Positions 3,004 through 36,169 of a DNA stretch of 64,000 bases are shown piece after piece (the first letter of the stretch is position 1; each line of letters opens with the position of its first letter). This stretch comes from Neisseria sp. Its GTDB lineage: Bacteria; Pseudomonadota; Gammaproteobacteria; Burkholderiales; Neisseriaceae. Location: positions 86,141 through 150,140 of the forward strand of contig NZ_JAUMZU010000001.1 of NCBI RefSeq assembly GCF_030527965.1, read 5' to 3'. The position numbers and the translations under genes are program-made. Below the pieces are notes generated by a model. That model had not been told where the DNA came from and ran no database searches. It saw only the letters and a program-made list of their open reading frames with translations.

Positions 3004-3056
3004 TCATAATAAATTTTAAAAGTTCATTTTAATATCACATCACAAGGGGAACAAAA

Positions 3057-5450
3057 ATGAAAACTCAGCATCTTACCCTAGGTCTAGAAATCGGATTACA
3101 AGATCTCATACATATGCAAGAAATCATTAAACAATCACAAGAAATTTTCGTAGCAGACAAAGAAAATAACAGCCTGGTTGCTGAAGAATTGAATACGGAA
3201 GAGCCGTTGGCTTTAGAAGAACAAAATGCGTTTCAGATTTTTCCTGAAAATTGGGTGGCCTTAGACGATAAGGAGCAGCCGGCTCAGAATAGCATGGGTT
3301 ATACCCATTTGGCCGAGAATACTTTTGTTGATGTAACCGACGTAAAAACCGCTTCGGATGCAACGGCTGCCGAAGAAGTAGAACCGGTTGCGGCTGAGGG
3401 TTCGAGCAAAATGCCTTGGATTCTAGGCGGCGCAGGGCTATTGCTGGCCGGTGTGGCCGCAGCGGCGGCAGGCGGCGGTTCCGGTGGTGGAGATTCGAAT
3501 TCTTCCGCTCAATCATCAGCAGGGCAAACTAAAAATAATACGGCCGGCGCTAACTCGAATAGTCAAACTGGAGACAGCCAAAGTAGAGAAGAGGAAAACA
3601 AAGGCTCTTCAACGGCCAATCAAACCGCAAACAACAATACTTCCGCTTCTTCCAGCCAGACTGATGCCAACCAGAGCGCATCAACAACGGATAATCAAAC
3701 AACCACCAATAACACAGAGCAGACCACCGATTCGCAAAACCAAGCGGCAAAGAATACCGATGCTGCTCAAACAACGGATACAGCCGCTTCAACTGATACG
3801 GCAAAGCAAAACACAAATACTAATAGCGCTTCTTCCCAATCTACCGAAACATCGGGTCAAAGCACCAGTTCGAATACAGCGTCGCAAAATTCTACGGAGA
3901 CGAAGAATACGGATTCAAGCCAGAATAGCAAGGCATCTGATTCTGCCGCCAGCAACACCACAACCACCGATAATACGGCCGCCAAAGATACTGGGTCATC
4001 AAGCACGGGTTCGACGGCCACCAAGCAATCTAATGCCGATTCAAGCGCTTCCACGTCTGATAATACGTCTAATACGTCGGCAAACCAGAATACTTCATCC
4101 GACGCCACCAGCAAGCAAAGCGGCTTGACGCTGGATATTGCCAAGCATTTTTATTCTGCCGATGTGATTAAAAAATACATCGATACCATCAGCAAGGCGG
4201 GCGGTAATTTTCTGCAACTGCATTTGTCTGATGATGATAACTATGCTTTTGAGAGCACGGTGCTCAATCAGCGCGTGGAAAATGCCACGCTGAATGCCGA
4301 CGGCACCTATACCAATCCGGTATCCGGCAAACAATTCTTGAGCTACACACAAATTGCCGATGTGGTTTCCTATGCCAAGGCCAAAGGGGTGGAACTGATT
4401 CCCGAAGTGGATACGCCCAACCATATGGATGCCATATTCACCTTGTTGGAGCAATATAAGGGGGCGGATTATGTGAAAAGCATTAAATCCGAAGTGGTGA
4501 ATGATGAAGTTAAGATTACCGACAGCACGGCCATCAGCTTTGTGAAAAGCCTGTATAGCGAAGTGATCGGCTTGATGGATGGTAACAGCAAGCATTTCCA
4601 TATCGGCGGTGATGAATTCGGCTACAGCGCTTCGAATAATCACGAATTCATCACTTATGCCAATACAATGTCGGAATTTCTGGCCAATCAGGGTTTGACT
4701 ACCCGTATGTGGAACGACGGATTGCTGAAAACCAGTTTGTCGTCGTTAAACACCAATATTGAAATCACTTATTGGAGCTACGACGGCAATCCTACCGATG
4801 CGGCCACCGCAAGCGAACGGCGTGCCGAACGCGCCAGTATGCAAGATTTGCTTGACGACGGATTCGATGTTTTGAATTACAACTGGTATTACCTCTATTT
4901 CGTTCCTAAAGACGGGGTAACCAACGCCGAAAGCGGTGCACATATGGCCAGCGATATTCAAACCAAATGGGATTTAAGCGTTTGGGACGGCACCACCACC
5001 ACCAATAAAGTTTCGGATACCGGCCATGTTATCGGCTCTTCCTTAACCATCTGGGGGGAAAATGCCGGCAACCTGACCGACGACAAGATTTACGAATGGA
5101 GTGCCAACGGTTTGTCTGCTTTAATCAGCAAAACGCATGCCGAGTCGGTGGATAAAAGCACCTTGACTAAAGTAACGGTGGAAATAAATGAATCGACACC
5201 GGCCAACAAGGTTGTGGATTTGGATGATTCGGCTTCTGAGCTGGTTTCCCTTTCTGCTACCGATGATTTTCTATCCAGCGGCAATGCGTTCGTATGGTTG
5301 AACGGCGGCACCGATGATATGGTGACTTTGTCGTCGGGCTGGACGGCAAGCGGAGCCAGCGAATTGAAAGGCGATGTCAGCTATTCGCTTTATAAAAACG
5401 GTCAAAACCATTTGTATGTTGATACGGATATTGCGGTGCAGATTGTTTGA
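3057..5450 (+). CDS. GH20 beta-N-acetylhexosaminidase, dispersin-B-like, with acidic N-domain, TM segment and ~270-aa S/T/N/Q-rich low-complexity linker
   Basis: HFHIGGDEFGY catalytic motif (H-x-G-G-D-E of GH20, as in DspB); TM-like MPWILGGAGLLLAGVAAAAAGG at aa 119-140; good RBS aagggga before ATG 3057. Confidence 0.75.
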   Translation: MKTQHLTLGLEIGLQDLIHMQEIIKQSQEIFVADKENNSLVAEELNTEEPLALEEQNAFQIFPENWVALDDKEQPAQNSMGYTHLAENTFVDVTDVKTASDATAAEEVEPVAAEGSSKMPWILGGAGLLLAGVAAAAAGGGSGGGDSNSSAQSSAGQTKNNTAGANSNSQTGDSQSREEENKGSSTANQTANNNTSASSSQTDANQSASTTDNQTTTNNTEQTTDSQNQAAKNTDAAQTTDTAASTDTAKQNTNTNSASSQSTETSGQSTSSNTASQNSTETKNTDSSQNSKASDSAASNTTTTDNTAAKDTGSSSTGSTATKQSNADSSASTSDNTSNTSANQNTSSDATSKQSGLTLDIAKHFYSADVIKKYIDTISKAGGNFLQLHLSDDDNYAFESTVLNQRVENATLNADGTYTNPVSGKQFLSYTQIADVVSYAKAKGVELIPEVDTPNHMDAIFTLLEQYKGADYVKSIKSEVVNDEVKITDSTAISFVKSLYSEVIGLMDGNSKHFHIGGDEFGYSASNNHEFITYANTMSEFLANQGLTTRMWNDGLLKTSLSSLNTNIEITYWSYDGNPTDAATASERRAERASMQDLLDDGFDVLNYNWYYLYFVPKDGVTNAESGAHMASDIQTKWDLSVWDGTTTTNKVSDTGHVIGSSLTIWGENAGNLTDDKIYEWSANGLSALISKTHAESVDKSTLTKVTVEINESTPANKVVDLDDSASELVSLSATDDFLSSGNAFVWLNGGTDDMVTLSSGWTASGASELKGDVSYSLYKNGQNHLYVDTDIAVQIV

Positions 5451-5471: not shown

Positions 5472-5499
5472 GCCTGTCTGAAAAATCGTTCAGACAGGC
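5472..5499. terminator. DUS inverted pair hairpin downstream of GH20 gene
   Basis: gcctgtctgaa ... ttcagacaggc inverted repeat; two further single DUS copies at ~5531 and ~5600. Confidence 0.6.
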
Positions 5500-11875: not shown

Positions 11876-12118
11876 ATGATGAAAAATCTATTGATTGCCG
11901 CAACCTTGTTAACTCTTGCTGCATGCTCTAACACTTGGCACGGAGCTAAAGAAGACAGCCAAAGTCTGAAAGATCGTGGAGAACAAAGCTTGGAACGCGG
12001 AGGCGAAGCAGTTGAAAAAGGTTGGGACAAAACCAAAGATTTAGGGCGTACCGCCGTGGATAAAACCGGCCGTGCCTTAGAAAAAAGCGGCCAATATCTG
12101 CAAGAAAAGGCAGAATAA
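11876..12118 (+). CDS. Small lipoprotein (lipobox LAAC), CsbD/stress-protein-like KG-rich repeats
   Basis: MMKNLLIAATLLTLAACS signal peptidase II site; RBS cggaga; 80 aa. Confidence 0.55.
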   Translation: MMKNLLIAATLLTLAACSNTWHGAKEDSQSLKDRGEQSLERGGEAVEKGWDKTKDLGRTAVDKTGRALEKSGQYLQEKAE

Positions 12119-14088: not shown

Positions 14089-14991
14089 TTATTCCTGCTC
14101 GCCTAAAAGTTGCTCGCGGGTCAGCAGTAAGACGAAGCCGTCGCCGCCGCTGGTTTCCAGCCAGGTGAACGGCAATTCAGGGTAGGCGCGCTCCAATTCT
14201 TCACGGTTGTGGCCGATTTCAACCAGTAAAACGCCTTTGGGATTAAGATAACGGGCGGCTTGCTGCAAGATTTGCCGAGTGGCGTCGAGCCCGTCGATGC
14301 CGCTGCCGAGCGCGAGCTCAGGCTCGTGCAAATACTCTTCGGGCAGGCTCTCAACCGATTCGGCATCGACATAGGGCGGGTTGGAAACGATTAAATCGTA
14401 GGTAGTATCGAGCCCTTCGAATAAATCGGTATGAATCAGGTTGATGCGCTCTTCCAGCCCGTAGCTTTCTACGTTTATGGCGGCTACCTCAAGGGCATCC
14501 AAGCTCAGGTCAACCGCATCAATGGCGGCATCGGGATAATAATGAGCCATTTGTATGGCGAGGCAGCCGCTGCCCGTGCATAAATCGAGTGCGCTGTGTA
14601 CCAGCTCGTCATATTCGATCCATGGGCGCAGCCGGTCGCCTAAAAGTTCGTAAATAAAAGAGCGCGGCACGATAACTCGTTCGTCAACATAAAAATCAAA
14701 TTCTCCCTGCCATGCTTGGTTGGTTAAATAAGCCACGGGCAAACGCTCTTTAACGCGCCGTTCGATAAGTTGCAAGACTTGTTCTTTTTCAGTTGGCAGC
14801 AATGCGGCGTCAAGATAGGGTTTCAACGTGTCTAGCGGCAGGTTGAGCGTATGCAAAATCAAATAAGCAGCCTCATCGTGCGCATTGTCGCTGCCGTGGC
14901 CGAAATAAAGACCGGCTTCGTTGAAACGGCTAACGGCAAAACGCAATAGGTCGCGCAAAGTGTTTAGATGGCGGGCGGCTTCTTTAAACAT
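14089..14991 (-). CDS. prmB: Ribosomal protein L3 glutamine N5-methyltransferase PrmB
   Basis: 300 aa; DLCTGSGCLAI SAM motif and NPPY catalytic motif. Confidence 0.9.
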   Translation of the reverse strand: MFKEAARHLNTLRDLLRFAVSRFNEAGLYFGHGSDNAHDEAAYLILHTLNLPLDTLKPYLDAALLPTEKEQVLQLIERRVKERLPVAYLTNQAWQGEFDFYVDERVIVPRSFIYELLGDRLRPWIEYDELVHSALDLCTGSGCLAIQMAHYYPDAAIDAVDLSLDALEVAAINVESYGLEERINLIHTDLFEGLDTTYDLIVSNPPYVDAESVESLPEEYLHEPELALGSGIDGLDATRQILQQAARYLNPKGVLLVEIGHNREELERAYPELPFTWLETSGGDGFVLLLTREQLLGEQE

Positions 14992-15056
14992 GGGTTGGTT
15001 CTCTGATATTAAGAAAAAGATTCGAGCGGATTATACAACAGCTCGGGTGTGCCGAT

Positions 15057-15082
15057 GCCTGTCTGAAAATATTCAGACAGGC
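15057..15082. repeat. DUS inverted pair in prmB/ABC divergent intergenic region
   Basis: gcctgtctgaa aata ttcagacaggc. Confidence 0.6.
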
Positions 15083-15160
15083 ATTTTCGATGATAAACAG
15101 GGTTTTCGGCTATACTTCAGTGTCTTAATCTATTTGCTTATCAGGCGTTTTATATTCATT

Positions 15161-16057
15161 ATGATTCAAATCCAATCGTTATCCCATCGCTATTCAGGTG
15201 CGGATTCTGCTGCGCTGGAAGACGTTTCGCTGAGTATTCGCCCCGGAGAATGCTGGGGGCTGCTCGGGCATAACGGCGCTGGTAAAACAACCTTGATGTC
15301 GTTGTTGGCCGGTTTGCAGGAAGTGCAACAAGGGCAGATTTTGTTTGACGGAACCGCCATCGGCAAATTGCCGCGCGCCAAGCGTCAGAAAATCGGTTTG
15401 GTTCCGCAGGATTTTGCGTTTTACCCTCAGCTGAGCGTATGGGATAACCTGTTGTTTTTTGCTTCTCTTTATCACGAGCGTGATAAAGACTATTTGCAAT
15501 CTTTGCTAGAACAGGCCGGATTAACCGAATACCGCAACCGTATGGCGCGCCAGCTTTCAGGCGGCCTGAAACGCCGCCTGAATTTCGCTATCGGTTTGGT
15601 CAACCGGCCGGAATTGGTTTTTTTAGATGAAATCACCGTCGGCATCGACCCTCAATCGCGCCGCTTCATTCTGGAAAACGTTGCCGCGTTAACCCGTTCG
15701 GGTATTACAGTGGTCTATACTTCGCATTATCTGCCGGAAATCGAGCAACTTTGCAGCCATCTTGCTTTATTGAATCAAGGGAAATTGGTTTATCAGGGCG
15801 GCTTGGCCGATTTGCTGCAAACGCAGGCGCCGAGCGTACGCTTCGTTACCGAGCCGCCGTTGCCGGATTGCGATTTACAAAGCTTGCAAGCCAAGCATAT
15901 CGGTAATGGGATGTGGGAGGTACCGGCCACGGCGCAAAGCGCGGCCGAGTTATATCAACGCTTGCAAAAAAGCGGTGTGGAAATCCGCTATTTCCAACAA
16001 GGCTGCGCTTCGTTGGAAAGCTTTTATCTCGATTTTTTAAGGCGGACAGCAACATGA
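15161..16057 (+). CDS. ABC transporter ATP-binding protein (ABC-2 type)
   Basis: Walker A GHNGAGKTT, signature LSGGLKRRL, Walker B VFLDE; ATG 15161 (track start 14921 is upstream extension). Confidence 0.85.
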   Translation: MIQIQSLSHRYSGADSAALEDVSLSIRPGECWGLLGHNGAGKTTLMSLLAGLQEVQQGQILFDGTAIGKLPRAKRQKIGLVPQDFAFYPQLSVWDNLLFFASLYHERDKDYLQSLLEQAGLTEYRNRMARQLSGGLKRRLNFAIGLVNRPELVFLDEITVGIDPQSRRFILENVAALTRSGITVVYTSHYLPEIEQLCSHLALLNQGKLVYQGGLADLLQTQAPSVRFVTEPPLPDCDLQSLQAKHIGNGMWEVPATAQSAAELYQRLQKSGVEIRYFQQGCASLESFYLDFLRRTAT

Positions 16058-17304
16058 TAGGCGCATCATTAATCAAAGAATTGAAACTGTTACGGCGCGA
16101 TTTGCATGGTTTGGCCGTATTGTTCATCATGCCGATAGCTTTTATGCTGATCATGTCTATGGCGCTGAGCCGAGGCGACGATCCGCATATCAACAGCCGC
16201 GTCGCTTTGGTGGGCGCTACCGAAAATCCGGTTAATCCGAGTTTCGCCAAAGCCTTGCGGGCAGAGAAAATCGATTTGACAAGCCTGTCTGAAAAGCAAT
16301 TGGCCGAAGCGAAAAACAACTTGCACCAAGGGCGTTATCAATTAGTGGTTTTCAACCCCAATCCGGCCGAGCAAAATCTGGCAGACGAGCAGCCGTTGCA
16401 GTTGATTGTTCCTCCCGATACCGATCCGGCTTGGCTTTCTGCCGTTAAAGGCGTTTTGCAAAAGCATTACACCGAAATCCGGCTAAACCATTATTTTGAC
16501 GGGCTGGGTAACGTAGAAATCCAAGAGGGCAAACTGCCCAATTCCATCAAAAAGAAAATCCAGAAAACAGTAAATAAAGAAAACGGCAAGCGATTCGACG
16601 CTGTAACGGATTATTTGAAAAAAAACCTGTTTAGCGAGCATTACCTTGCTCAAAACGGTGCAGTGGCCAAACCGAATGCCGTGCAGCATAGTGTTCCCGC
16701 TTGGCTGATTTTCGGTATGTTTTTCATCATGATACCGCTTTCCAACGTGATGGCGCTGGAGCGACAAACCAATACGATTACTCGCCTTCGGCTCGCGCGT
16801 GCGCCGGCCAGCGTATTGATAGCAGCCAAACTGCTGCCTTATTTTCTGATTAACCAATTACAGTTTGTCGGCATGCTGTTGCTGGGGCGTTATCTGCTGC
16901 CTCATCTGGGCGTGCCCGCACTGGAATTAACGGGCGCATGGTGGCCTTATGCCGCGCTTGCCGTTGCCGTTAGCGCGGCAGCGTTGGGCTATGCCTTATT
17001 AATCAGCGTATCGGCAAAAAGCACCGAGCATGCGGTGGTGCTTGGTGGCGGCGGAATTATCCTGATGGCTGCTCTCGGCGGAATTATGGTGCCCGATTAC
17101 GTGATGCCCGAAACGATGCAGCAGCTAACCTGGATCTCCCCGATGGCTTGGGGGCTGAAAGCCTTTCAAGCCTTATTGCTGCGGCAGAGCGGAATAGCCA
17201 GCATCACATTTTATCTGCAATTATTGGCCGCTTTCTCCACCATCTGCATCGTCTTGGCTTTAGTGATTTACCGCAGGCAATTAAAAACGCAGGTGCGGTT
17301 TTGA
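16054..17304 (+). CDS. ABC-2 family transporter permease (large periplasmic loop after TM1)
   Basis: ATGA overlap with ATPase gene stop; RBS aaggcgga; 6 predicted TM; internal DUS at ~16282 within coding sequence. Confidence 0.8.
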   Translation: MIGASLIKELKLLRRDLHGLAVLFIMPIAFMLIMSMALSRGDDPHINSRVALVGATENPVNPSFAKALRAEKIDLTSLSEKQLAEAKNNLHQGRYQLVVFNPNPAEQNLADEQPLQLIVPPDTDPAWLSAVKGVLQKHYTEIRLNHYFDGLGNVEIQEGKLPNSIKKKIQKTVNKENGKRFDAVTDYLKKNLFSEHYLAQNGAVAKPNAVQHSVPAWLIFGMFFIMIPLSNVMALERQTNTITRLRLARAPASVLIAAKLLPYFLINQLQFVGMLLLGRYLLPHLGVPALELTGAWWPYAALAVAVSAAALGYALLISVSAKSTEHAVVLGGGGIILMAALGGIMVPDYVMPETMQQLTWISPMAWGLKAFQALLLRQSGIASITFYLQLLAAFSTICIVLALVIYRRQLKTQVRF

Positions 17305-17310
17305 TTGGTC

Positions 17311-17565
17311 AGTTTATAATCAGGCTGTCTGAAAGCCTCGAACAGCGTGATTATCCATTCGTAAAGAAAGAACCTTTATGAAACCCTTTACTTCCCTTCT
17401 AACCGCCGCCTTATTATCCGCCGCCAGCCTGAGCGCCTGCGGCGGGTCGGAGAAACATATGAGCATTCAAGAGCAGACTGAAAAACGTTTCCAACTCAAT
17501 CCTCACCCTACAAAAGCCTACCGCATTAAAATCAAAATAAATGATGCGCCCGGGCCTTTGAAACT
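17311..17565 (+). repeat. Direct repeat copy 1 (~255 bp, ~94% identical to 18139-18393): promoter/5'UTR + first ~62 codons of lipoprotein gene
   Basis: By-eye alignment of the two segments; includes variant DUS caggctgtctgaaa. Confidence 0.8.
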
Positions 17566-18079
17566 TGTCAGTTCAAGGATTCAATATATAGCAGACAATT
17601 GTTCATACATTATTAACAATGTGGAAGGTGCAAGCGCTAATCCTGAAAAATTCATAAATGTTGAATTTCAACAAACTACTTTAAATGAATATAAAGCCAT
17701 AATTTATTTAGATAGAATGCAAAATGAAGATTATTTCGGAACAGGAATTTGTCAATGGAAAGCAGGTGGATTCAATCTAGGTTTCCAAGCCACAGGCAAA
17801 CCAGAAGAAACTACTTTTTCAATAGGGGGAATTCTAGATAGTTCTCTACTTGTAGATGAAAGAAGTAAAAAAAACTCTCTTTTATTCAAACTAACTGAAA
17901 CTAGATTCTACTGGAAAAAAGGATATCCATATTATAGAAATGAAGATGGTTCAATATACGAAAGCAACACTATGGCCGACTCTGGCATACAATCTGAATC
18001 ACTAAATAAATATTATACTGACCAACAACGTAAAAATTTATTCAATATAACTGTTACTCTTGAGGAAATGAAGTCATGA
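17378..18079 (+). CDS. Lipoprotein paralog 1; candidate immunity protein
   Basis: MKPFTSLLTAALLSAASLSACGG lipobox; C-terminal domain homologous but diverged from paralog 2 (shared DEDYFG.G.C.W, GYPYYRN-DGS-Y motifs); C-terminal 500 nt very AT-rich. Confidence 0.7.
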   Translation: MKPFTSLLTAALLSAASLSACGGSEKHMSIQEQTEKRFQLNPHPTKAYRIKIKINDAPGPLKLVSSRIQYIADNCSYIINNVEGASANPEKFINVEFQQTTLNEYKAIIYLDRMQNEDYFGTGICQWKAGGFNLGFQATGKPEETTFSIGGILDSSLLVDERSKKNSLLFKLTETRFYWKKGYPYYRNEDGSIYESNTMADSGIQSESLNKYYTDQQRKNLFNITVTLEEMKS

Positions 18080-18138
18080 CTACAAGACAACAAAATGCTC
18101 GCTTCCTATCAAAAGCCTTATTTATCGAACGGATTGAT

Positions 18139-18393
18139 AATCAGGCTGTCTGAAAATCTCGAATAGCGTGATTATCCATTCGTAAAGAAAGAGCCTTTAT
18201 GAAACCCTTTACTTCCCTTCTAACCGCAGCCTTATTATCCGCCGCTAGCCTAAGCGCCTGCGGCGGGTCGGAGAACCGTATGAGCATTCAAGAGCAGACT
18301 GAAAAGCGTTTCCAACTCAATCCACACCCCACAAAAGCCTACCGCATTAAAATCAAAATCAACGATGCACCCGGGCCTTTGAAGCCAGTAGGA
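18139..18393 (+). repeat. Direct repeat copy 2 (see 17311-17565)
   Basis: Near-identical 5' module of lipoprotein paralog 2. Confidence 0.8.
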
Positions 18394-18855
18394 AAGATGT
18401 CTGTAGGTTATATCGCTGAAAATTGCTCATATACTATTGCTAAGTTTGCCGGAGCAAAGGCTAAACCTGAAAAAGATGTTTATACCGAAGTCAAACAGAT
18501 AGGGGCAGATGAATATGAAAGTACCATTTATCTTGATGCCATGCGAGATGAAGATTATTTTGGGCAAGGAGTATGCCACTGGCAGGCATATAGTTTTGCT
18601 GTAGGATTTAAAGCGACGGGAAAGCCAAATGAAACAAACTTTGGGATAGGAGAAATTTTAGAAGAGATTTTATCTAAGAAGACTCGAACAATATATTTTT
18701 GGAAAAGAGGTTACCCTTACTATAGAAATGATGATGGTTCCGTCTATAACAAGGATGATATGTATGACTCTGGATATGATTCTTTAAACGATTACATTGC
18801 TCAAAGACGTAATGAATTATTTACGATGACTGTTCAAATTGAGGAGATTGAATAA
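18199..18855 (+). CDS. Lipoprotein paralog 2; candidate immunity protein, translationally coupled to lipase gene
   Basis: Same signal peptide/lipobox; stop TAA overlaps ATG of next gene (TAATG) with GAGGAG RBS inside its 3' end. Confidence 0.75.
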   Translation: MKPFTSLLTAALLSAASLSACGGSENRMSIQEQTEKRFQLNPHPTKAYRIKIKINDAPGPLKPVGKMSVGYIAENCSYTIAKFAGAKAKPEKDVYTEVKQIGADEYESTIYLDAMRDEDYFGQGVCHWQAYSFAVGFKATGKPNETNFGIGEILEEILSKKTRTIYFWKRGYPYYRNDDGSVYNKDDMYDSGYDSLNDYIAQRRNELFTMTVQIEEIE

Positions 18856-20204
18856 TGTCCCAGCTAAATAGACAACAATACGCAGATCTTTCAGAAGATT
18901 CTTATGAAAAAAGAAATGCTGATGAACATAAAAAAATTCTTATTGGCAAGCATTATTATAAAGTTCTTGCTACTTGGGGTAATCCTAAGACAGATTATCA
19001 GGGTGCTGTTTATCAAGATGTCGAAACCAATACTATTGTCGCAGCACATAGAGGAACGGAATCGCTTAAAGATGGAATAATTGACCTGAAAATGGTGTTT
19101 CAACAGGTTAACAGTCAGTTGGAAGATGCAACCACACTAACACTGATGGCTTTAAGAAAAGCAGAGGAGTTTCATAAAAAGCGTCCTGATATGCCCAAAC
19201 CCAAAGTAGAGCAAACCGGTCATTCACTAGGCGGTTCTCATACCGAAATACAGGTTCATCTTTTTGAAGAAAAAGGGATTTTGATGGAAGGGGTAACCTT
19301 TAACGGTTACGGAGCGGCAGGCCTTCACGGCGTTCCCGAAAAAGACAATGGTCGATTAACGGCTTATGTGAAGGCTTCCGATGTAGTATCCGCTGCAAAC
19401 CCCCATTACGGCAGAGTGGTGGTGTTGGCTACAGAGAAAGACCTCGCTCCGTTGAAAGCATACGGCTATAACAATGAGCGCGATACTCCGACACCTACGG
19501 CAATCAGCGCCAGCTTGACCAATACATTGCCAGCCCACGGGATAAAAAATTTTACCGGCTCCGATTCAATCCTATCCCGACTCAACTACCGTCATGCCCG
19601 CTCACTGGCGGACGATAATGAAAAGATGATTCAAGATTTTCGCAGTGATATAAAAGCCCTCAAAAACGGCCTCTCTCATGGCGTTAATGAAGCCAATAAA
19701 GCTTACGACATCATGCGCTCTATCCCCACTTCTTCTGAAATATTTATGCGGGAAATCCAGAAAAGCGTTATTCCGCCATTGATGGAAAATAACACCCAAA
19801 CCGCCCCTGCATTGGGCCTCGCCGATATGCCTGAAAAGGCACGGCAACTTTGCGAAGAGTGTAAGACGCATCTAGTTGATTTTCATAAAGGAAAAAACAT
19901 TGCTGTCAGTGAAGACAAGCTGGATAGAATGGCGGCTGCGGCCGGTGTGCAGGCTTATCGGGAAGGCTTTCCGGGTATTCAGGCGCTTGCCATTCATGAT
20001 GGCGAAGTCAGATTCGGATACCGCTATCCTCACGAGCAGGCACTTTACGGTTTGGTAAACGCCACCCAAGCAGCCGCGACACCGGTTGAAGAAAGCGTGG
20101 TTCAATCAAGGCAGGCAGAGCAGGAATTGGCACAGAAGGCGCAACAACGTGAAATGGCAATGGCCGAATACCATTCGCAATCGCGCGGGAGAAGTATTTC
20201 TTAG
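18855..20204 (+). CDS. Class-3 lipase (alpha/beta hydrolase, GHSLGG nucleophile elbow) without signal peptide; candidate secreted phospholipase effector (Tle/X-Tfe-like)
   Basis: AAHRGTE ... (58 aa) ... GHSLGGS matches lipase_3 RGT/GHSLGG spacing; no Sec/Tat signal; Q/A-rich C-terminal tail. Confidence 0.7.
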   Translation: MSQLNRQQYADLSEDSYEKRNADEHKKILIGKHYYKVLATWGNPKTDYQGAVYQDVETNTIVAAHRGTESLKDGIIDLKMVFQQVNSQLEDATTLTLMALRKAEEFHKKRPDMPKPKVEQTGHSLGGSHTEIQVHLFEEKGILMEGVTFNGYGAAGLHGVPEKDNGRLTAYVKASDVVSAANPHYGRVVVLATEKDLAPLKAYGYNNERDTPTPTAISASLTNTLPAHGIKNFTGSDSILSRLNYRHARSLADDNEKMIQDFRSDIKALKNGLSHGVNEANKAYDIMRSIPTSSEIFMREIQKSVIPPLMENNTQTAPALGLADMPEKARQLCEECKTHLVDFHKGKNIAVSEDKLDRMAAAAGVQAYREGFPGIQALAIHDGEVRFGYRYPHEQALYGLVNATQAAATPVEESVVQSRQAEQELAQKAQQREMAMAEYHSQSRGRSIS

Positions 20205-20235
20205 ATCGGTTATCGGTTGGAAACATTATTAATGA

Positions 20236-20261
20236 TGCCTGTCTGAAAATATTCAGGCAGG
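20236..20261. terminator. DUS (variant) inverted pair hairpin after lipase gene
   Basis: gcctgtctgaa aata ttcaggcaggc (second half is gcctgcctgaa variant). Confidence 0.55.
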
Positions 20262-20299
20262 CTATTATCTAGTCTTAATTTATCAAACAATAAAATATT

Positions 20300-22003
20300 A
20301 TGAGCACCCGTAATCAATTTATTATGACCATAATCATGCTGCTGGCAGCTGTTGTTGCCGGCTGCTATCTTTCGGGCTTTATTTTGCTGCAATGGCTGGG
20401 ATTGAACAACACACCGTTAGGGTTAACCACTTATTTCCAATATTTCAGCAAGCTGCATCTCCCGCGGGTTGCCGCTTATGCTTTACAAATTAAAACGTCA
20501 GGTGCCGTCGGCTTTGGTTTGCCTTTGCTGCTCTGGCTGATTCTGCTGATTCCGTTGTGGAAAAACCGGGCACCCAGCTTGCACGGCGAGGCGCGTTTTT
20601 CCAATCTTGTCGATTTGACTAAGGCAGGCTTTTTGAAACAAAGCGACACCAGCCTTGTGGTAGGCAAGCAAAACGGCAAATTGCTGTATTACAACGGCCA
20701 GCAGTTTGCTCTTCTGGCAGCACCGACCCGTTCGGGGAAGGGCGTGGGGATTGTGGTGCCTAATTTATTGCATTATCAAGGTTCGGTTGTTGTGTTGGAT
20801 ATTAAACAGGAAAACTTCAATCTGACCAGCGGCTACCGCAAAGAAGTGTTGAGGCAGGAAGTTTACCTGTTTAATCCGTTTGCCGAAGACGGGCGCACCC
20901 ATCGCTGGAACCCGTTTACCTATGTTTCAAAGGATAAAAACCAGCGCATATCGGATTTGATGTCGATTGCGGCGATGCTGTATCCGGACGGAGACAGTAA
21001 AGACAAGTTTTGGGTGGCTCAGGCAAGAAATGCGTTTTTGGCTTTTTCGCTTTATTTGTTTGAAGAGTATGAGCACAGGAAAGGCTTCATTCCTGAGCTA
21101 AATCAATCGACTAATGGTACGGCTCCTTGCACCTTAGGCAAGCTTTACCGGCTTTCATCCGGCAATGGCGAAGAATTGAAAAATTACTTCCAAGAGCTGG
21201 CTCAAGCAGAATTTCTAAGCGAAGCCTGTAAAACTGCTTTTTCGGGGCTGGTTTCTCAAGAGAAAGAAACTTTCGGCTCTATCATGGGTACATTCAAAGA
21301 GCCGTTGAATCCTTGGCTTAACCCTCTGGTTGATGCAGCCACTTCGGCAGACGATTTTTTCTTGACCGATGTCCGCAAAAAGAAAATGACCGTCTACATC
21401 GGTATTTTGCCGAACAAACTGGCTGAATCAAGGGTAATCGTTAACTTGTTTTTCTCCCAGCTGATTAACCAAAACACCAAACAACTTCCGCAAGACAATC
21501 CTGCTCTGAAGCACCAATGTCTGTTGCTGATGGACGAATTTACCAGCATCGGTAGGGTGGACATCATTGCCCATGCCGTGAGCTATATGGCAGGCTATAA
21601 CATCCGATTATTTCCGATTATTCAATCGGTTGCGCAACTGGATGCGGTTTACGGCAAAGAATATGCCCGCACCATCATTACCAACCACGCCTTGCAGATA
21701 CTGTATACCCCGCGAGAGCAGCAGGATGCGAACGAATACTCAGAAATGCTGGGCTATACGACGGTTCGGAAACAGAACGTGAGCAAAGGGCGGGAGCGCA
21801 GCGTATCGGAGAGTGAAGAGAGAAGAGCGCTGATGCTGCCGCAGGAATTGAAGGCAATGAGCCAAGATAACGAGATTATGATTTACGAGGGGATGGCATA
21901 CCCTGCTAAGGTTGGTAAGATTCGTTATTACAATGATAAAACGTTTACTTCGAGGTTGAGGAAAGCGGTGATGGTAAAATCGTTGGCGGTGAGTAAAGAA
22001 TAA
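20300..22003 (+). CDS. virD4: Type IV secretion coupling protein, VirD4/TraG family
   Basis: 567 aa; two N-terminal TM helices; P-loop LLAAPTRSGKGVGIVVPNLL; Walker B CLLLMDEFTSIG; IIQSVAQLDAVYG motif; all characteristic of T4CPs. Confidence 0.85.
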   Translation: MSTRNQFIMTIIMLLAAVVAGCYLSGFILLQWLGLNNTPLGLTTYFQYFSKLHLPRVAAYALQIKTSGAVGFGLPLLLWLILLIPLWKNRAPSLHGEARFSNLVDLTKAGFLKQSDTSLVVGKQNGKLLYYNGQQFALLAAPTRSGKGVGIVVPNLLHYQGSVVVLDIKQENFNLTSGYRKEVLRQEVYLFNPFAEDGRTHRWNPFTYVSKDKNQRISDLMSIAAMLYPDGDSKDKFWVAQARNAFLAFSLYLFEEYEHRKGFIPELNQSTNGTAPCTLGKLYRLSSGNGEELKNYFQELAQAEFLSEACKTAFSGLVSQEKETFGSIMGTFKEPLNPWLNPLVDAATSADDFFLTDVRKKKMTVYIGILPNKLAESRVIVNLFFSQLINQNTKQLPQDNPALKHQCLLLMDEFTSIGRVDIIAHAVSYMAGYNIRLFPIIQSVAQLDAVYGKEYARTIITNHALQILYTPREQQDANEYSEMLGYTTVRKQNVSKGRERSVSESEERRALMLPQELKAMSQDNEIMIYEGMAYPAKVGKIRYYNDKTFTSRLRKAVMVKSLAVSKE

Positions 22004-29474: not shown

Positions 29475-31250
29475 TCAATAAACGTCTCGTTGATAACGTT
29501 TTTCTTCTCGCATTTCGTTCAGAAAATCTTCGGCGTCGTCGCGGCTCATTTTGCCTTCGGCGGCAATGATATCCAGCAGGGTGTTTTCCACATCGCGCGC
29601 CATGCGCAAGGCGTCGCCGCATACATAAATATGGGCGCCTTGTTGCAGCCATGCCCAAACTTCAGCCGAGGCGGCAGCGAGTTTGTGCTGTACGTAAACC
29701 TTTTCCTGCCCTTGTCTGCTCCAAGCCAGATCGGCGCGTGCCAGCAAGCCCGACTTGCGGTATTGCAGCCATTCGGCTTGATAGAGGAAATCATCGGTGA
29801 ATTTCTGATTGCCGAAGACCAGCCAGTTTTTACCCGTATCGCCGTTGGCTTCCCGCTGCTGCATAAAGGCGCGGAAGGGGGCGATGCCTGTGCCGGCGCC
29901 GATCATGATGATGGGAGTTTCGCTGTTTTCAGGCAAACGGAAAAGCTTGTTCGGTTCGATGAATATGCGCAAACGCTCGCCTTCTTCCAAGCGGTTGCCC
30001 AGCCAGCCGGAAGCGGCTCCGGTGTAATGATTGCCGTGATGCTCGAAGCGCACCACACCTACGGTCAGATGCACTTCTTCGCCCACTTCTTCTTGAGACG
30101 ACGCAATGGAATAGAGGCGCGGGGTTTGTGCACGGAACAGCCCGAATAGGGTTTGCGCATCGAATTTGTGCGGATGCGCTGCCAATACGCCGACCGGCGG
30201 CGTCAGTGCCAGATAGGCATTTAAGGCTTCGGCGTCTTCCACCGTGCGTTGAAGCTCTTCCGCTTTGCTCAGCGCGGCATATTGTTGTACGAATTGGGGG
30301 GTGTTTTGGGTGATGTCGAGATCTTGCGTGAGTGCGGTGCGGATGTCTGTTTCGCTGCCGTCGGCTTTTTGCACCGTTTCGCTGCCGTTCAAACCGGCAT
30401 GTTGCAAAATTTCGGCCACGAGGTTGTCGTCGTTAATCGGCCAAACGCCCAGAGCGTCGCCCGCTTGATAATGGATGCCGGAGCCGGCAAGGTCGATTTC
30501 GATATGCTCAACATCTTTTTCAGCTTCACGGGCGGTAATTTTCTGCCGAACGGATAAAACGGCGGTAAACGGTTGCTCTTTAGAGTAGTGTTTGCCGCCT
30601 TCAGCCGGCAAATTGCTTGAAGCAGCCGTAGGCGGAGCGGCAGGACCTGCGGCCAGCCCGGCAACAACGGTCACTGCGGCTTCCACCCACGCATCGGCAG
30701 CGGCTTGATAATCAAGATCGCAAATGCCCAAATCGGCGATGCGCTTGCCGCCGAGTTTTTCCAAGGCGGCATCGAAGTCTTTGCCCGCTTGGCAGAAATC
30801 GGGATAGCTGCTGTCGCCCAAACCTAAAACGGCAAAACTGAGTTTGCCTAAATCCGGTGCTTTTTTGCCGGTCAGAAGTTTATAAAGCGGAACGGCTTCT
30901 TCCGGCGGCTCGCCTTCGCCTTGGGTTGAGGCGACAATCAGCAGGATATCTTCGCCGGAAATTTGCTTGGTTTTGTAATCTGCCGCGGCAACGAGTTTGG
31001 CTTGCACGCCCGCTCCGGCCAGTTTGGCCGACAGTCTTTCGGCCACTTTGCGGGCGTTGCCGGTTTGTGAGGCGGAAATGACGGTTACGCTGCGTGCAAC
31101 GACAGGCTCTGCAGCGGGCAAACCTGTTGCCGCCGCAGCGCCGCTTTCCGCGCCTCCGCTTTTCGCCCATGCGTAGCCTGCCAGAAAAGCCAATTGCTGG
31201 GGAGTGAGCTGAGCCAGTTGGGCAAGCAGTTCGGGTGGTATTGGGTTCAT
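29475..31250 (-). CDS. cysJ: Sulfite reductase [NADPH] flavoprotein alpha-component CysJ
   Basis: 591 aa; flavodoxin-like N-domain, FAD/NADPH C-domain; classic CysJ. Confidence 0.9.
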   Translation of the reverse strand: MNPIPPELLAQLAQLTPQQLAFLAGYAWAKSGGAESGAAAATGLPAAEPVVARSVTVISASQTGNARKVAERLSAKLAGAGVQAKLVAAADYKTKQISGEDILLIVASTQGEGEPPEEAVPLYKLLTGKKAPDLGKLSFAVLGLGDSSYPDFCQAGKDFDAALEKLGGKRIADLGICDLDYQAAADAWVEAAVTVVAGLAAGPAAPPTAASSNLPAEGGKHYSKEQPFTAVLSVRQKITAREAEKDVEHIEIDLAGSGIHYQAGDALGVWPINDDNLVAEILQHAGLNGSETVQKADGSETDIRTALTQDLDITQNTPQFVQQYAALSKAEELQRTVEDAEALNAYLALTPPVGVLAAHPHKFDAQTLFGLFRAQTPRLYSIASSQEEVGEEVHLTVGVVRFEHHGNHYTGAASGWLGNRLEEGERLRIFIEPNKLFRLPENSETPIIMIGAGTGIAPFRAFMQQREANGDTGKNWLVFGNQKFTDDFLYQAEWLQYRKSGLLARADLAWSRQGQEKVYVQHKLAAASAEVWAWLQQGAHIYVCGDALRMARDVENTLLDIIAAEGKMSRDDAEDFLNEMREEKRYQRDVY

Positions 31251-31326
31251 GGTTGGTCCTTATTAATAGTATTTTTTGGCTTTTCCGCCCGTCTGATTTT
31301 TTCAGACAGGCATGGTGTGTCGGCTT

Positions 31327-32646
31327 TTAAATATCAAAGGCATCTTTCGTATCTTTTCCGCGTATCATGCCGGCGGCCACGGTATGGTTGGTGGCTTCGT
31401 CAATCAAAATGAATGCGCCGAGTGCGGCATTGTCGGCATAGTTGGCGGCGGCGAGGGCTTGCTGGCTTTTCAGGCTGACGCTGCCGATGTCGTTTAATTT
31501 CAACGCGTCGGCCGATTGAACGCGGCTGAGTGTGTGCACATCCCATATATAGGCGATTTCGCTGATTTTGACTGCGGTGGTGCGGGTACTGTGCTTGAGC
31601 AGATATTTCCGACGCAGGTTGAGCGGGGTTTCGTCAAACCAACACAGGGCGGCTTGGAATTCCTGCTGCGGCTCTATGGGGTTGTTGATGGCGACGATGC
31701 TGTCGCCGCGGGAAATGTCGATGTCGGTATCCAGCGTCACGGTCAGCACTTCGCCCGCCTCGGCTTGGTTGACTTTGCCTTTGGGGCTGTAGATTTCGGC
31801 GATTTTGGCAGTTTTGCCGCCGGGTAATACTTTGACTTCATCGCCGATTTTCAACCTCCCGGCTTCCAATCGGCCTTGATAGCCGCGGAAGTCGTCGCTG
31901 CTACTGCCGTCTTGACGTGCAACGCGTTGAACGGGAAAGTGGGCGGGCGAATCGGCGGCGTTTTTGCGGTCGACGGGCAGTTGCTCCAGTAAGCGAAGCA
32001 GTGGTAAATCTTGATACCACGGGGTGTTTTCGCTCGGGTTGACGATGTTGTCGCCGTTCAGGGCGCTAATCGGCAGGAAATAAATTTGCGCGTTAAGGCC
32101 GATTTGTTCGGCCAGTCGGCGATAGGCTTGGGTAATCGCTTGGTATCGGGTTTCGTCGAAACCGAGCAGGTCGAGCTTGTTAACCGCCACAATGACGTTG
32201 GGACAACCTAATAATTTGAGAATGGCACTGTGGCGCTTGGTTTGCGGCAATAATACGGGCTCGCTGCCGGAAAAATCGACACGCGTCGCGTCTATCAATA
32301 CGATGGCCGCATCCGCGGTGGAGGCGCCGGTTACCATGTTGCGGGTGTATTGCTCGTGGCCGGGCGTGTCGGCAATGATGAATTTGCGCGCGGGCGTGGC
32401 AAAATAGCGGTAGGCCACGTCAATCGTGATGCCTTGCTCGCGCTCGGCGGCCAGGCCGTCGGTAAGGCTGGCGAAATCAGGTGTTTGGCCGTTTTGCGCG
32501 GCTTGGTCGAGCTTGGATAATTGGTCGGTAAGCAGGGTTTTGCTGTCGTACAGCAGGCGGCCGATGAGGGTGGATTTACCATCGTCAACGCTGCCGGCGG
32601 TAATGAATCTTAAAACGGGAGCAGAGGTTTGGGTCATACTGGGCAT
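31327..32646 (-). CDS. cysN: Sulfate adenylyltransferase subunit 1 CysN
   Basis: GTPase motifs GSVDDGKSTLIGRLL, DTPGH, NKLD. Confidence 0.9.
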   Translation of the reverse strand: MPSMTQTSAPVLRFITAGSVDDGKSTLIGRLLYDSKTLLTDQLSKLDQAAQNGQTPDFASLTDGLAAEREQGITIDVAYRYFATPARKFIIADTPGHEQYTRNMVTGASTADAAIVLIDATRVDFSGSEPVLLPQTKRHSAILKLLGCPNVIVAVNKLDLLGFDETRYQAITQAYRRLAEQIGLNAQIYFLPISALNGDNIVNPSENTPWYQDLPLLRLLEQLPVDRKNAADSPAHFPVQRVARQDGSSSDDFRGYQGRLEAGRLKIGDEVKVLPGGKTAKIAEIYSPKGKVNQAEAGEVLTVTLDTDIDISRGDSIVAINNPIEPQQEFQAALCWFDETPLNLRRKYLLKHSTRTTAVKISEIAYIWDVHTLSRVQSADALKLNDIGSVSLKSQQALAAANYADNAALGAFILIDEATNHTVAAGMIRGKDTKDAFDI

Positions 32647-32823
32647 CCTTAGTTTGCTGGGCCGAAGGGCCGTTTTTATGGCGCATACTGTAAACAGGGC
32701 GCTTGAAAAAGGGAAAGAATGGTTTGTTTTAATTTAAGATGATTTCGTTATATCGGTTTGCTTGATAAGCAATGCCTGTCTGAAAGGTTTTTCAGACAGG
32801 CATTGTGTTTTGTAAAAAGCTCA

Positions 32824-33744
32824 CTAGAAATAACCGGCTTTTTTACGCTCTTCCATAGCGGCTTCGGAAACGCGGTCGTCCATGCGGGTAGCGCTGCGTT
32901 CCGAAATGGTGGCGGCGGCGGTTTCCGCAATGATGTCTTCGGCGGTTGCGGCGGTGCTGGCTACGGGGCAGGTGCAGGAAATATCGCCTACCGTACGGAA
33001 GCGGACGCTGCGGATTTCGGAAACGTCGCCTTCGCGTTTGGGCGTGAGCGGGGTAACGGGTACGAGCAGGCCGCTGCGTTCCACTACTTCGCGTTGGTGG
33101 GCATAATAAATCGGCGGCAGGGCGAGGTTTTCGCGGGCAATGTATTGCCAGATGTCGAGCTCGGTCCAATTGGAAATGGGGAATACGCGCATATTCTCGC
33201 CCTGAAACAGGCGGGTGTTATACAGGCTCCATAGCTCCGGTCGCTGATTTTTCGGATCCCACTGGCCGAATTCGTCGCGGAAAGAAAAGATGCGCTCTTT
33301 GGCGCGGGCTTTTTCTTCGTCACGCCGCGCACCGCCCATTAGAGCGTCAAAGCCTTGTTCTTCGATGGTTTCCACCAAGGTAACGGCTTGTGCGGCATTG
33401 CGTGAATCGGTTTCTCTGCGCAAAACAACGCTGCCGCGCTTGATGGAATCTTCAACATGGCCGACAACCAATTGCACGCCTGTGCGCGCCACTGTTTGGT
33501 CGCGAAACTCAATCACTTCGGGATAATTGTGGCCGGTGTCGACGTGCAGCAGTTTGAACGGCAGTTTCAGCGGTCGGCCTTCAATTTGGAAGGCTTTAAC
33601 GGCCAGCGCCAGCAAAACGACGGAATCTTTGCCGCCGGAAAACAGCAGCGCGGGATTTTTAGCTTCGGCGATAACCTCGCGGATGATGTAGATCGATTCG
33701 GCTTCAAGCCAATCGAGATGGTGGTTTTGGATAGAAGTTTGCAT
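32824..33744 (-). CDS. cysD: Sulfate adenylyltransferase subunit 2 CysD
   Basis: PAPS-reductase-like fold; ATG 33744 (MQTSIQNHHLDWLEAESI); track start 34035 is an out-of-context extension overlapping cysH. Confidence 0.9.
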   Translation of the reverse strand: MQTSIQNHHLDWLEAESIYIIREVIAEAKNPALLFSGGKDSVVLLALAVKAFQIEGRPLKLPFKLLHVDTGHNYPEVIEFRDQTVARTGVQLVVGHVEDSIKRGSVVLRRETDSRNAAQAVTLVETIEEQGFDALMGGARRDEEKARAKERIFSFRDEFGQWDPKNQRPELWSLYNTRLFQGENMRVFPISNWTELDIWQYIARENLALPPIYYAHQREVVERSGLLVPVTPLTPKREGDVSEIRSVRFRTVGDISCTCPVASTAATAEDIIAETAAATISERSATRMDDRVSEAAMEERKKAGYF

Positions 33745-33793
33745 GATGGTGCCTTTTATTGATAATGCCTGTCTGAAAACGGTTGATATCGGG

Positions 33794-34540
33794 TTATTTG
33801 TGCAAACCGCATTCTTTGCTGTCTTTGCTTTCCCACCACCAGCGGCCGGCGCGGATTTCTTCGCCTGCGCGGATGGGACGGGTGCAGGGTTCGCAGCCGA
33901 TGCTGGGATAGCCTTGCTCGTATAATGAATTGTAAGGAACGCTATGGCATCGGATATAAGCCCAAACGTCTTCTTCGCTCCAATCGTAAATCGGATTGTA
34001 TTTGGCGATACCGCGCGCCGTATCTTGCTCGGCAAAGGCCAATTCGGTGCGGGTTACCGATTGCTCGCGCCGCTGGCCGGTAAGCCATGCGCCGGCATCG
34101 GCCAATGCGCGGTTCAACGGTTCGACTTTGCGGATGCGGCAGCATTCTTTGCGTAAATCAACGCTTTCGTAGAATGCGTTTAAACCTTTGTTAGATGTAT
34201 ATGCTTCTACGGCCTTTGCATCTGGTTTGTAGAGTTTGAATTTGAGCATCGGATAATGTTCGGCCAATATGTCGATTAACGACAAGGTCTCGGGATTGAG
34301 CCTGCCGGTTTCCAGCGTAAACACTTCGGCATCGGCCGCAATGTTTACCAACATATCAGTGATGACCATGTCTTCTACGGCCAAGCTGCTGGCCAGCTTA
34401 ACTTTTTGATGCTGCGACAGAATAAAGCGTAAGCGTTTTTCTAATGCGGCGCTTTTTTCAGACAGGCTCCGGTTGGTCGCATCGGATATATTCGGAATCT
34501 GCCACAATTTCGGCTTGCTGAAAGAAACAACGGTTTCCAT
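33794..34540 (-). CDS. cysH: Phosphoadenosine phosphosulfate reductase CysH
   Basis: ECGLH C-terminal motif; ATG 34540 with RBS aaggaaaa. Confidence 0.85.
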   Translation of the reverse strand: METVVSFSKPKLWQIPNISDATNRSLSEKSAALEKRLRFILSQHQKVKLASSLAVEDMVITDMLVNIAADAEVFTLETGRLNPETLSLIDILAEHYPMLKFKLYKPDAKAVEAYTSNKGLNAFYESVDLRKECCRIRKVEPLNRALADAGAWLTGQRREQSVTRTELAFAEQDTARGIAKYNPIYDWSEEDVWAYIRCHSVPYNSLYEQGYPSIGCEPCTRPIRAGEEIRAGRWWWESKDSKECGLHK

Positions 34541-34548
34541 GCTTTTCC

Positions 34549-35994: not shown

Positions 35995-36169
35995 TTTTCT
36001 TTCCACTCTGAAACCGAGGCTTATCATAAGCGAGAGCTCGGGCGCAAAGGAAAGATTTATTTCTGCCTTAGATAGAATGAAAAATTATATGGAGGAAAAA
36101 GCGAAATGCCTGTCTGAAAACTTCGGTTTGGTTTTCAGACAGGCATTTGGGTTTAATGATGAAGACGGT

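Follow-up and report, generated by a model that had tools for sequence, protein, structure and literature searches.

Among anti-biofilm enzymes, dispersin B (DspB) of Aggregatibacter actinomycetemcomitans serves as the reference, and it has been known only in the form of a small protein, secreted freely through the Sec pathway. Homologues of dspB have been listed for 15 Neisseriaceae species, with lengths of up to 770 aa (N. shayeganii), in a review that remarks on 'N- or C-terminal extensions' in some species without analysing them (PMC11357414, Kaplan et al. 2024). Surface adhesins of the LapA type carry retention modules of ~125 aa that have low sequence identity and end in a dialanine motif (TAAG, AAAG or the degenerate AAAIG) and a poly-Gly linker that threads a TolC-like pore (10.1101/198937). 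MpIBP is anchored in the same way as LapA (PMC5550230), and the number of extender domains varies in adhesins of the repeats-in-toxin (RTX) class (10.1101/2025.09.30.679566). Here we describe a gene at positions 3057–5450 of a 64,000-nt stretch of a Neisseria sp. metagenome-assembled genome (MAG; contig NZ_JAUMZU010000001.1, positions 86,141–150,140; hereafter the window), which encodes a 797-aa protein of glycoside hydrolase family 20 (GH20). The gene is already known as GH20; we found no account in the literature of an adhesin-like chassis, of a common C-terminal module or of natural substitutions at the position of DspB Arg27.

We propose, with moderate confidence, that the product is a dispersin-B-type GH20 protein on the plan of adhesins that are secreted by a type I secretion system (T1SS), with retention at the surface, i.e. 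that it is exported by a T1SS and tethered. This reading is favoured because the protein has no signal peptide, because its terminal modules are common to T1SS-linked adhesins, because its composition is acidic and Cys-free, because it ends at its last hydrophobic strand and because a stalk is sensible only if the enzyme is tethered. The segments referred to below are the following.

3044–3049, + strand: AAGGGG, Shine-Dalgarno (SD)-like, 7 nt 5' of the ATG at 3057, read from the sequence
3057–5450, + strand: GH20 gene, ATG start, 797 codons and a TGA stop
3057–3410, + strand: N-region, aa 1–118, acidic, predicted to be mostly disordered, with a weak helix at aa 8–44
3411–3491, + strand: hydrophobic Gly/Ala-rich stretch with poly-Gly, aa 119–145, MPWILGGAGLLLAGVAAAAAGGGSGGG
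3492–4112, + strand: linker rich in S, T, N, A, Q and D, aa 146–352 (207 aa), without Pro, predicted to be disordered
4113–5144, + strand: GH20 catalytic domain of dispersin-B type, aa 353–696, from Pfam, 1YHT and AlphaFold (confident)
4143–4145, + strand: AAG codon of Lys363, where GH20 enzymes universally have a substrate-binding Arg (DspB Arg27)
4611–4616, + strand: catalytic pair Asp519-Glu520 (DspB D183/E184), within HFHIGGDEFGY
5145–5447, + strand: all-beta C-terminal module (C-module), aa 697–797, ending in ...HLYVDTDIAVQIV at the very C-terminus
5472–5499, + strand: hairpin (11-bp stem) formed by two inverted copies of the GCCTGTCTGAA repeat, 22 nt past the stop codon

Gene model and active site of the GH20 protein

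The database protein WP_303086952.1 / MDO4640158.1 (Neisseria sp. MAG), which bears only the annotation 'family 20 glycosylhydrolase', has exactly the sequence encoded by 3057–5450. A preliminary description of this open reading frame (ORF) had recognised an acidic N-region, a hydrophobic stretch, a low-complexity linker, a GH20 domain and a C-terminal extension. This order is confirmed, with two lengths corrected below, and the unusual architecture is real: about 40 homologues of 650–860 aa have the whole plan in common, and genome matches include N. wadsworthii 9715, Neisseria sp. 83E34 and Neisseria sp. CCUG12390. The hairpin at 5472–5499 is likely a terminator.

The N-terminal 118 codons are coding and not an annotation artefact, a doubt that the preliminary description had raised for the first ~140 aa. 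Their translation follows from three observations: 85–125 upstream in-frame codons are kept, without a stop, in every homologue; Met119 is absent from most homologues (A, L, H, A, S and T/V in P0005, P0006, P0007, P0009, P0019 and P0022, respectively); and the ratio of nonsynonymous to synonymous substitution rates (dN/dS) of the N-region is 0.26 for the orthologue pair of N. wadsworthii and Neisseria sp. 83E34. The long form was also chosen by the gene callers of several sources.

The DspB-like core with its D-E catalytic pair, as described before, is borne out by both sequence and fold. Pfam Glyco_hydro_20 (PF00728) matches aa 356–670 (E 1.2e-33; 117.3 bits versus a cut-off of 22.3), the best solved relative by sequence is DspB (1YHT; aa 349–696, E 7.7e-127), and 1YHT is also the top Foldseek match, with a template modelling (TM) score of 0.88 normalised to 1YHT and 54% identity over 345 aligned positions. 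Active-site columns were read at mutagenesis-defined positions after alignment of the GH20 domain with DspB and 36 other relatives. The D519-E520 pair, which in DspB (D183/E184) serves substrate-assisted catalysis, is invariant in the family, and the equivalents of DspB D147, D183, E184, Y187, W216, W237, Y278, W330 and E332 are all conserved in the window protein, which thus retains Glu668 together with the Trp/Tyr pocket.

Two positions differ: DspB Arg27 is replaced by Lys363 and DspB Asp242 by Asn578. Endo cleavage of poly-beta-1,6-GlcNAc depends on D242 and on D147. DspB Arg27 is the Arg conserved in all beta-hexosaminidases, which forms hydrogen bonds with the hydroxyls on C3 and C4 of the -1 sugar; in DspB, R27K lowers catalytic efficiency 2400-fold and D242N abolishes most endoglycosidase activity (PMC11357414; PMC11883664). 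Of the family members and GH20-bearing relatives retrieved, 10 have Lys at the Arg27 position, 17 (the P0022 group) have Asp and 20 have Arg. P0022–P0038 have Asp there (DTADHYYS) and keep the D-E pair and the Trp pocket, and the position is Arg in all Sec-type paralogues checked. The Lys363 substitution had been overlooked in the preliminary description and bears directly on the assumed hydrolysis of poly-beta-1,6-GlcNAc (poly-N-acetylglucosamine, PNAG). Judged from sequence, Lys363 in place of Arg may reduce the activity of the window enzyme or alter its specificity relative to DspB. Since diverged lineages keep the remainder of the pocket intact, the GH20 domain would still be expected to bind a GlcNAc-type substrate, although its rate and specificity need not be those of DspB.

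Non-catalytic segments and their relatives

Outside the enzyme, the best conserved element is the hydrophobic stretch at aa 119–145, in which AAAG is followed by GGGSGGG and which consists of 37% Gly and 26% Ala. Its codons have a dN/dS of 0.00 (dS 0.30, 28 codons; N. wadsworthii versus 83E34). AAAG and the poly-Gly run (aa 133–145, ...VAAAAAGGGSGGG) lie at about residue 110–150. A similar hydrophobic stretch follows the N-domain in P0019, P0022, P0130, P0084, P0115 and in Ig-like adhesins of Providencia and Pantoea; in the Providencia adhesin the N-domain leads into a hydrophobic ...WWLAALVPLIGIPAIAIGGGGGGGHS with a poly-Gly run, mirroring P0019 (...LLAAVAAAGGGGGGGGGHS) and the window protein. 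The window motif ...AAAAAGGGSGGG also resembles the dialanine/poly-Gly motif of LapA, as does AAAAIGGSGGG of the relative P0007, a likeness at the level of pattern only. From these resemblances we propose that aa 119–145 may act as a tether or pore-threading element. Regulated release of the LapG type, which the AAAG motif raises, was not adopted, given that AAAG is embedded in the hydrophobic stretch and that neither a LapG nor a LapD gene was seen.

The N-region holds 24 D/E versus 6 K/R (net -18). The N-terminus (MKTQHLTLGLEIGLQDL...) is without a hydrophobic core and the first hydrophobic window begins at aa 119; a Sec/Tat-type N-terminal hydrophobic signal is absent, as had been noted before. 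The AlphaFold confidence score (predicted local distance difference test, pLDDT) stays below 50 across aa 1–351. N-regions of the family are of two kinds, BapA-like and the acidic, apparently disordered kind of the window protein, which is conserved solely within the closest clade. The BapA-like N-domain (P0019, P0022, P0130, P0084) is of beta type with the motif VKRVGDDLYFF...YF and is homologous to the N-domains of the Providencia and Pantoea adhesins and of the giant P0115 (hhalign probability 97.6%, E 4.5e-12, 92 columns from residue 1); a PDB sequence search with the P0022 N-domain gave no match. A folded retention-type N-domain is thus seen in sister subgroups only, without an equivalent in the window protein. 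For the window N-region no Pfam, NCBIfam or PDB relative was found, T1SS retention-module and BapA models included; the Pfam and NCBIfam scans of isolated N- and C-pieces covered the window protein and four relatives and returned noise alone. A protein search with the window-type N-terminal profile matched two truncated fragments of the same family, and no other cargo with this N-region.

The linker was described before as ~270 aa of S/T/N/Q-rich sequence; its composition (S 24%, T 21%, N 14%, A 14%, Q 9%, Pro 0) agrees with this, and its length is 207 aa. Its pLDDT is below 35, and we propose, on the basis of the model, that it could serve as a flexible stalk. The coding DNA has a strong AT skew (0.34–0.42) and produces alternative-frame ORFs, as had been observed, at 3451–4128 (+), 3550–3816 (-) and 3857–4144 (-). 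The expectation of length variation among strains also held, since linkers of homologues range from 50 to 289 aa. The tandem repeats assumed to underlie it are ruled out for the window allele: Tandem Repeats Finder (TRF) detects just an 18-nt trace in the linker DNA, which shows compositional bias instead, and slippage-type length variation is therefore not expected in this allele. In two sister groups the linker changes stepwise among near-identical proteins, by 5-aa KPVEN repeats (linkers of 50–140 aa; P0022–P0038) or by 7-aa AEPTPPA/V repeats (123–214 aa; P0007–P0017), and these whole-repeat steps point to slippage-type variation in those lineages. A likeness to regions targeted by Neisseria O-glycosylation, suggested earlier, is weak, and the linker is without proline. 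The oligosaccharyltransferase acts in the periplasm, which T1SS export would bypass; O-glycosylation of the linker looks unlikely if export takes this route.

The C-terminal extension, previously put at ~110 aa, is present and measures about 101 aa (697–797). It is modelled by AlphaFold as a confident all-beta domain (pLDDT about 85–92; ~89 when modelled alone). By segment, dN/dS (N. wadsworthii versus 83E34) is 0.26 for the linker, 0.05 for GH20 and 0.08 for the C-module. When 1.84 billion representative proteins were searched with a profile built on the last 79 aa, 115 of them matched, the non-GH20 ones being mostly 1000–5400 aa long. In 61 of the 99 matches without the GH20 catalytic motif the module lies at most 12 residues from the C-terminus, and 40 of these 61 proteins carry at least three RTX-like motifs; the C-module carriers that were scanned have HemolysinCabind, FG-GAP, Cadherin, Big_13 or VCBS domains. 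One match, obtained after one round of profile broadening, is a 2732-aa Pantoea adhesin with the module at its extreme C-terminus (36 bits, E 2.6e-13 in a single-sequence test). Since the C-module is also found as internal repeats, it is a folded domain and not merely a signal; a PDB sequence search with its profile gave no match. The long forms terminate at the last hydrophobic strand (QIV, EIL, EVV and others), whereas paralogues with a Sec signal add polar tails. Given the proteins that carry it, we propose that the C-module may be a T1SS targeting and folding module.

These paralogues combine GH20 and the C-module in about 505–519 aa behind a canonical Sec or lipoprotein signal peptide. 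They co-occur with the long form in N. wadsworthii (locus L016) and Neisseria sp. 83E34 (L009), and further ones were found in Exercitatus varius and in Glaesserella, Mesocricetibacter and Actinobacillus MAGs (several Pasteurellaceae); loci with Sec- or lipoprotein-signal GH20 proteins are L009, L016, L011, L008, L010, L014, L015 and L018. Two differently routed dispersin-like enzymes per genome are worth study in themselves. At the other extreme, Moraxella MAGs encode giants with a DspB-like GH20 and the C-module (L034, 321–6719, >2132 aa; L036, 276–10325, >3349 aa), and P0084 (L090, 5819–12424, 2201 aa) has a BapA-like N-domain, a hydrophobic stretch, GH20 and the C-module. Scaffolds of the giant GH20 proteins, also in P0080 and P0096, consist of beta-helix, Big_12 and cadherin-type domains. 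As far as sequence can tell, the GH20 plus C-module giants suggest a wider class of adhesin-mounted dispersins.

Among the long forms, Cys is absent and the pI is 4.05–5.27 in the 11 proteins checked, a composition that fits T1SS substrates but does not discriminate. Three homologue groups have conserved upstream neighbours (GT2, nucleoside hydrolase and Dus), and homologue gene tables place the gene outside any polysaccharide operon. No pga genes were found by Pfam among the 20 larger ORFs of the window, and no linked pga genes in the gene tables around seven homologues.

Export route and retention

In the mechanism that we propose, an unlinked system of ATP-binding cassette (ABC) transporter, membrane fusion protein (MFP) and TolC would export the protein C-terminus first, and the GH20 domain and the C-module would fold outside the cell. 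The N-region with the hydrophobic/poly-Gly element would be retained and anchor the enzyme to the envelope, the disordered S/T/N-rich stretch of 207 aa would form a flexible stalk replacing Ig-like extender domains, and the enzyme would cut, or at least bind, poly-beta-1,6-GlcNAc near the cell surface and would not diffuse away. The cell-surface location already considered in the preliminary description is plausible in the light of the adhesin-like terminal modules. A working T1SS is present in N. meningitidis (PMC5472700). The adhesins with related N-domains are encoded next to secretion genes: TolC, T1SS ABC and HlyD genes lie directly 3' of the Providencia adhesin gene (L087, 19351–30445, Providencia alcalifaciens plasmid 2, with an OmpA-family gene before the Ig-like adhesin), and the Pantoea gene (L088, 12040–24378, Pantoea sp. 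SOD02 pSOD02) is followed by an OmpA-family gene, then a T1SS ABC gene ('type I secretion system permease/ATPase'). The annotated start of the Pantoea adhesin at 12040 seems to omit ~29 in-frame codons that align with related N-domains.

Several results weigh against T1SS export with tethering. No T1SS, LapG or LapD gene was found in the 20 larger window ORFs scanned with Pfam or in the gene tables of the 10-kb flanks of seven homologues; tblastn of the Providencia TolC, ABC and HlyD proteins against all fetched loci gave generic ABC nucleotide-binding-domain matches only, and no T1SS or pga genes were found in the ORFs 3' of a Moraxella giant. The window protein has no RTX nonapeptide beta-roll (GGxGxDxUx) by Pfam, with one RTX-like motif only, and no Ig-like extender domains by Pfam, its spacer being disordered. 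The C-module matches no Pfam or NCBIfam model, T1SS C-terminal models included, and the ~510-aa Sec-signal paralogues carry it too (28–51 bits); it can therefore work after Sec export as well and is no proof of a T1SS. The N-region of the window clade has no homology to the BapA-like and sister-subgroup N-domains (hhalign E 0.25 and 0.79), and with a predicted disordered N-region and no recognised retention domain a folded plug is not demonstrated for the window protein. Catalytic strength is likewise uncertain, as Lys363 and Asn578 match the positions of the DspB-weakening R27K and D242N.

The alternative that survives best, although we consider it unlikely, is a type II inner-membrane protein in which aa 119–145 would be a Sec/YidC signal anchor, the acidic N-region cytoplasmic and the remainder periplasmic, where the enzyme would trim PNAG during synthesis or export. 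PslG, a membrane-tethered periplasmic hydrolase of another exopolysaccharide system, provides an analogy. The highest 19-residue Kyte-Doolittle window of the whole protein (1.79, aa 121–140) exceeds the usual threshold of 1.6, but the segment has the high Gly and Ala content given above and is coil by AlphaFold/DSSP, with no helix (pLDDT ~25, weak evidence given the shallow alignment). A rough translocon-scale estimate is +1.3 to +2.9 kcal/mol for most members and marginal for stable insertion. A single Lys stands ahead of the segment in many family members, yet the flanks are net acidic in 14 of 14 proteins checked (in the window protein, 1 K/R versus 5 D/E in the preceding 20 residues; in P0009, an N-region with zero K/R), and with an N-region of net -18 the positive-inside rule is unmet. 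The single transmembrane or type II anchor suggested in the preliminary description is thus not the best fit.

Function of the GH20 plus C-module cassette after Sec export in the paralogues, the lack of linked T1SS genes and a window N-region not recognisable as a retention domain would all suit such an anchor. On the other side, the same element occurs in Ig/cadherin adhesins of 1900–3400 aa, two of them beside T1SS genes, which cannot work as periplasmic proteins; the succession of N-domain, hydrophobic stretch and poly-Gly heads giant adhesins of T1SS operons, and the C-terminal extension is common to RTX-type C-termini. A linker of 207 aa (up to 289 aa in relatives) would also exceed what is needed to span the periplasm, and the location of the gene outside any polysaccharide operon does not favour trimming of PNAG during synthesis.

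A fully released T1SS exoenzyme, without retention and with the N-region and hydrophobic stretch acting, for example, as a chaperone-like or inhibitory pro-region, appears improbable. The C-module held in common with RTX-type C-termini and the disordered, not plug-like N-region are in keeping with it, but no other non-catalytic part of the protein is as constrained as the hydrophobic/poly-Gly element, which is also common to adhesins that need attachment to function, and a long stalk would have no obvious use in a free enzyme. Least credible by far is a mis-set start, with translation from Met119, MPWILGGAGLLLAGVAAAAA as a cleavable Sec signal peptide, the 118 codons before it excluded and a secreted enzyme of the ordinary kind as the product: an SD-like GAGGG ~10 nt 5' of ATG 3411, segment hydrophobicity within the range of real DspB and Sec-paralogue signal peptides (rough scale) and Ala-rich AxA-like sites after the segment speak for it, but it was rejected on the homologue alignment, the open upstream frames and the dN/dS reported above, it would leave a signal without a positively charged n-region, and ATG 3057 has a good SD and is the start of the long form that gene callers of several sources chose.

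If T1SS export and surface retention are correct, the producer would degrade PNAG only at its own surface, which would change the view of dispersal and of competition between species in the biofilms of mouth and airways; an enzyme, and not a ligand-binding domain, would sit on an RTX-adhesin chassis, possibly with a retention element that needs no folded plug. We give only a small chance to a bolder version, in which the long forms would be previously unrecognised 'adhesin-mounted dispersins', exported by a T1SS and held by a non-canonical hydrophobic Gly/Ala plus poly-Gly anchor without a folded plug, with the Lys363/Asp heads mainly PNAG-binding lectins. The PNAG-recognising GH20 head would then stand on a stalk that is disordered in Neisseria and built of giant Ig/beta-helix domains in Moraxella and others, and the Lys363/Asp-variant heads would have lost most catalytic power. 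Such a bacterium would stick to, or slowly remodel, the PNAG-rich biofilms of its neighbours instead of dispersing its own. The natural Arg to Lys and Arg to Asp changes in an otherwise intact site offer a test of attenuated enzyme, changed specificity or lectin, and the variants at the Arg27 position may be of use in dispersin engineering.

Window context and comparison with known systems

Elsewhere in the window, the 12-mer TGCCTGTCTGAA occurs 36 times versus 0 expected, at sites that include 2011, 5597, 15056/15072, 26924/26949, 52759/52774 and 5472–5499 after the GH20 gene, often as close inverted pairs forming terminator-like hairpins. It may represent a DNA-uptake-sequence dialect of N. 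wadsworthii type; the canonical Neisseria uptake sequence GCCGTCTGAA is absent from the window. The ORF at 20300–22003 (+) encodes a VirD4/TraG coupling protein of type IV secretion (PF02534, E 1e-110), with an upstream stretch at 17378–20204, and the adjoining 449-aa ORF at 18855–20204 has no Pfam match; the region 17378–22003 may be a conjugative or integrative element remnant. A sulfate-assimilation cluster at 29475–36027 (-) comprises a CysJ-like flavoprotein, a CysN-like GTPase, a protein with a 3'-phosphoadenosine-5'-phosphosulfate (PAPS) reductase domain and the sirohaem synthase CysG. The transporter genes at 14921–17304 (+) are overlapping ORFs for an ABC-2-type exporter pair of ATPase and permease, not a T1SS transporter.

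Compared with DspB (1YHT), the window protein has the same GH20 (beta/alpha)8 core, catalytic residues and Trp/Tyr pocket, and both proteins come from upper-airway or oral bacterial families. DspB is a single domain of 381 aa with a 20-aa Sec signal, whereas the window protein has 797 aa, no signal peptide and four extra segments, besides the Lys363 and Asn578 exchanges. The Sec-signal paralogues share the GH20 core (about 45% identity) and a recognisable C-module and are found in genomes that also encode the long form; they differ in lacking the N-region, the hydrophobic/poly-Gly element and the linker, in keeping the active-site Arg and in their short polar tails.

With the adhesins LapA, MpIBP, FrhA and BapA the window protein has in common the absence of a signal peptide and an N-module of ~120–145 aa that ends in an Ala-rich or hydrophobic stretch and poly-Gly. 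To this are added, for the LapA/BapA type, a long spacer whose length varies between strains, a functional domain toward the C-terminus, a terminal beta module and an acidic, Cys-free composition. Those adhesins have Ig-like extenders and an RTX beta-roll, in contrast to the disordered low-complexity spacer and the absence of a detectable beta-roll here; the window N-region is not homologous to known retention domains, its cargo is an enzyme and not a ligand-binding domain, and neither an adjacent T1SS operon nor a LapG/LapD gene accompanies it. T1SS-secreted RTX enzymes such as Serratia LipA and the serralysin-type proteases are released and have clear GGxGxD repeats, no retention-like N-element and no stalk. 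The giant GH20 adhesin-like proteins are much larger and keep Arg at the Arg27 position, but they have GH20 and the C-module as in the window protein, which, from its sequence, looks like a minimal version of these giants with a disordered stalk replacing the scaffold.

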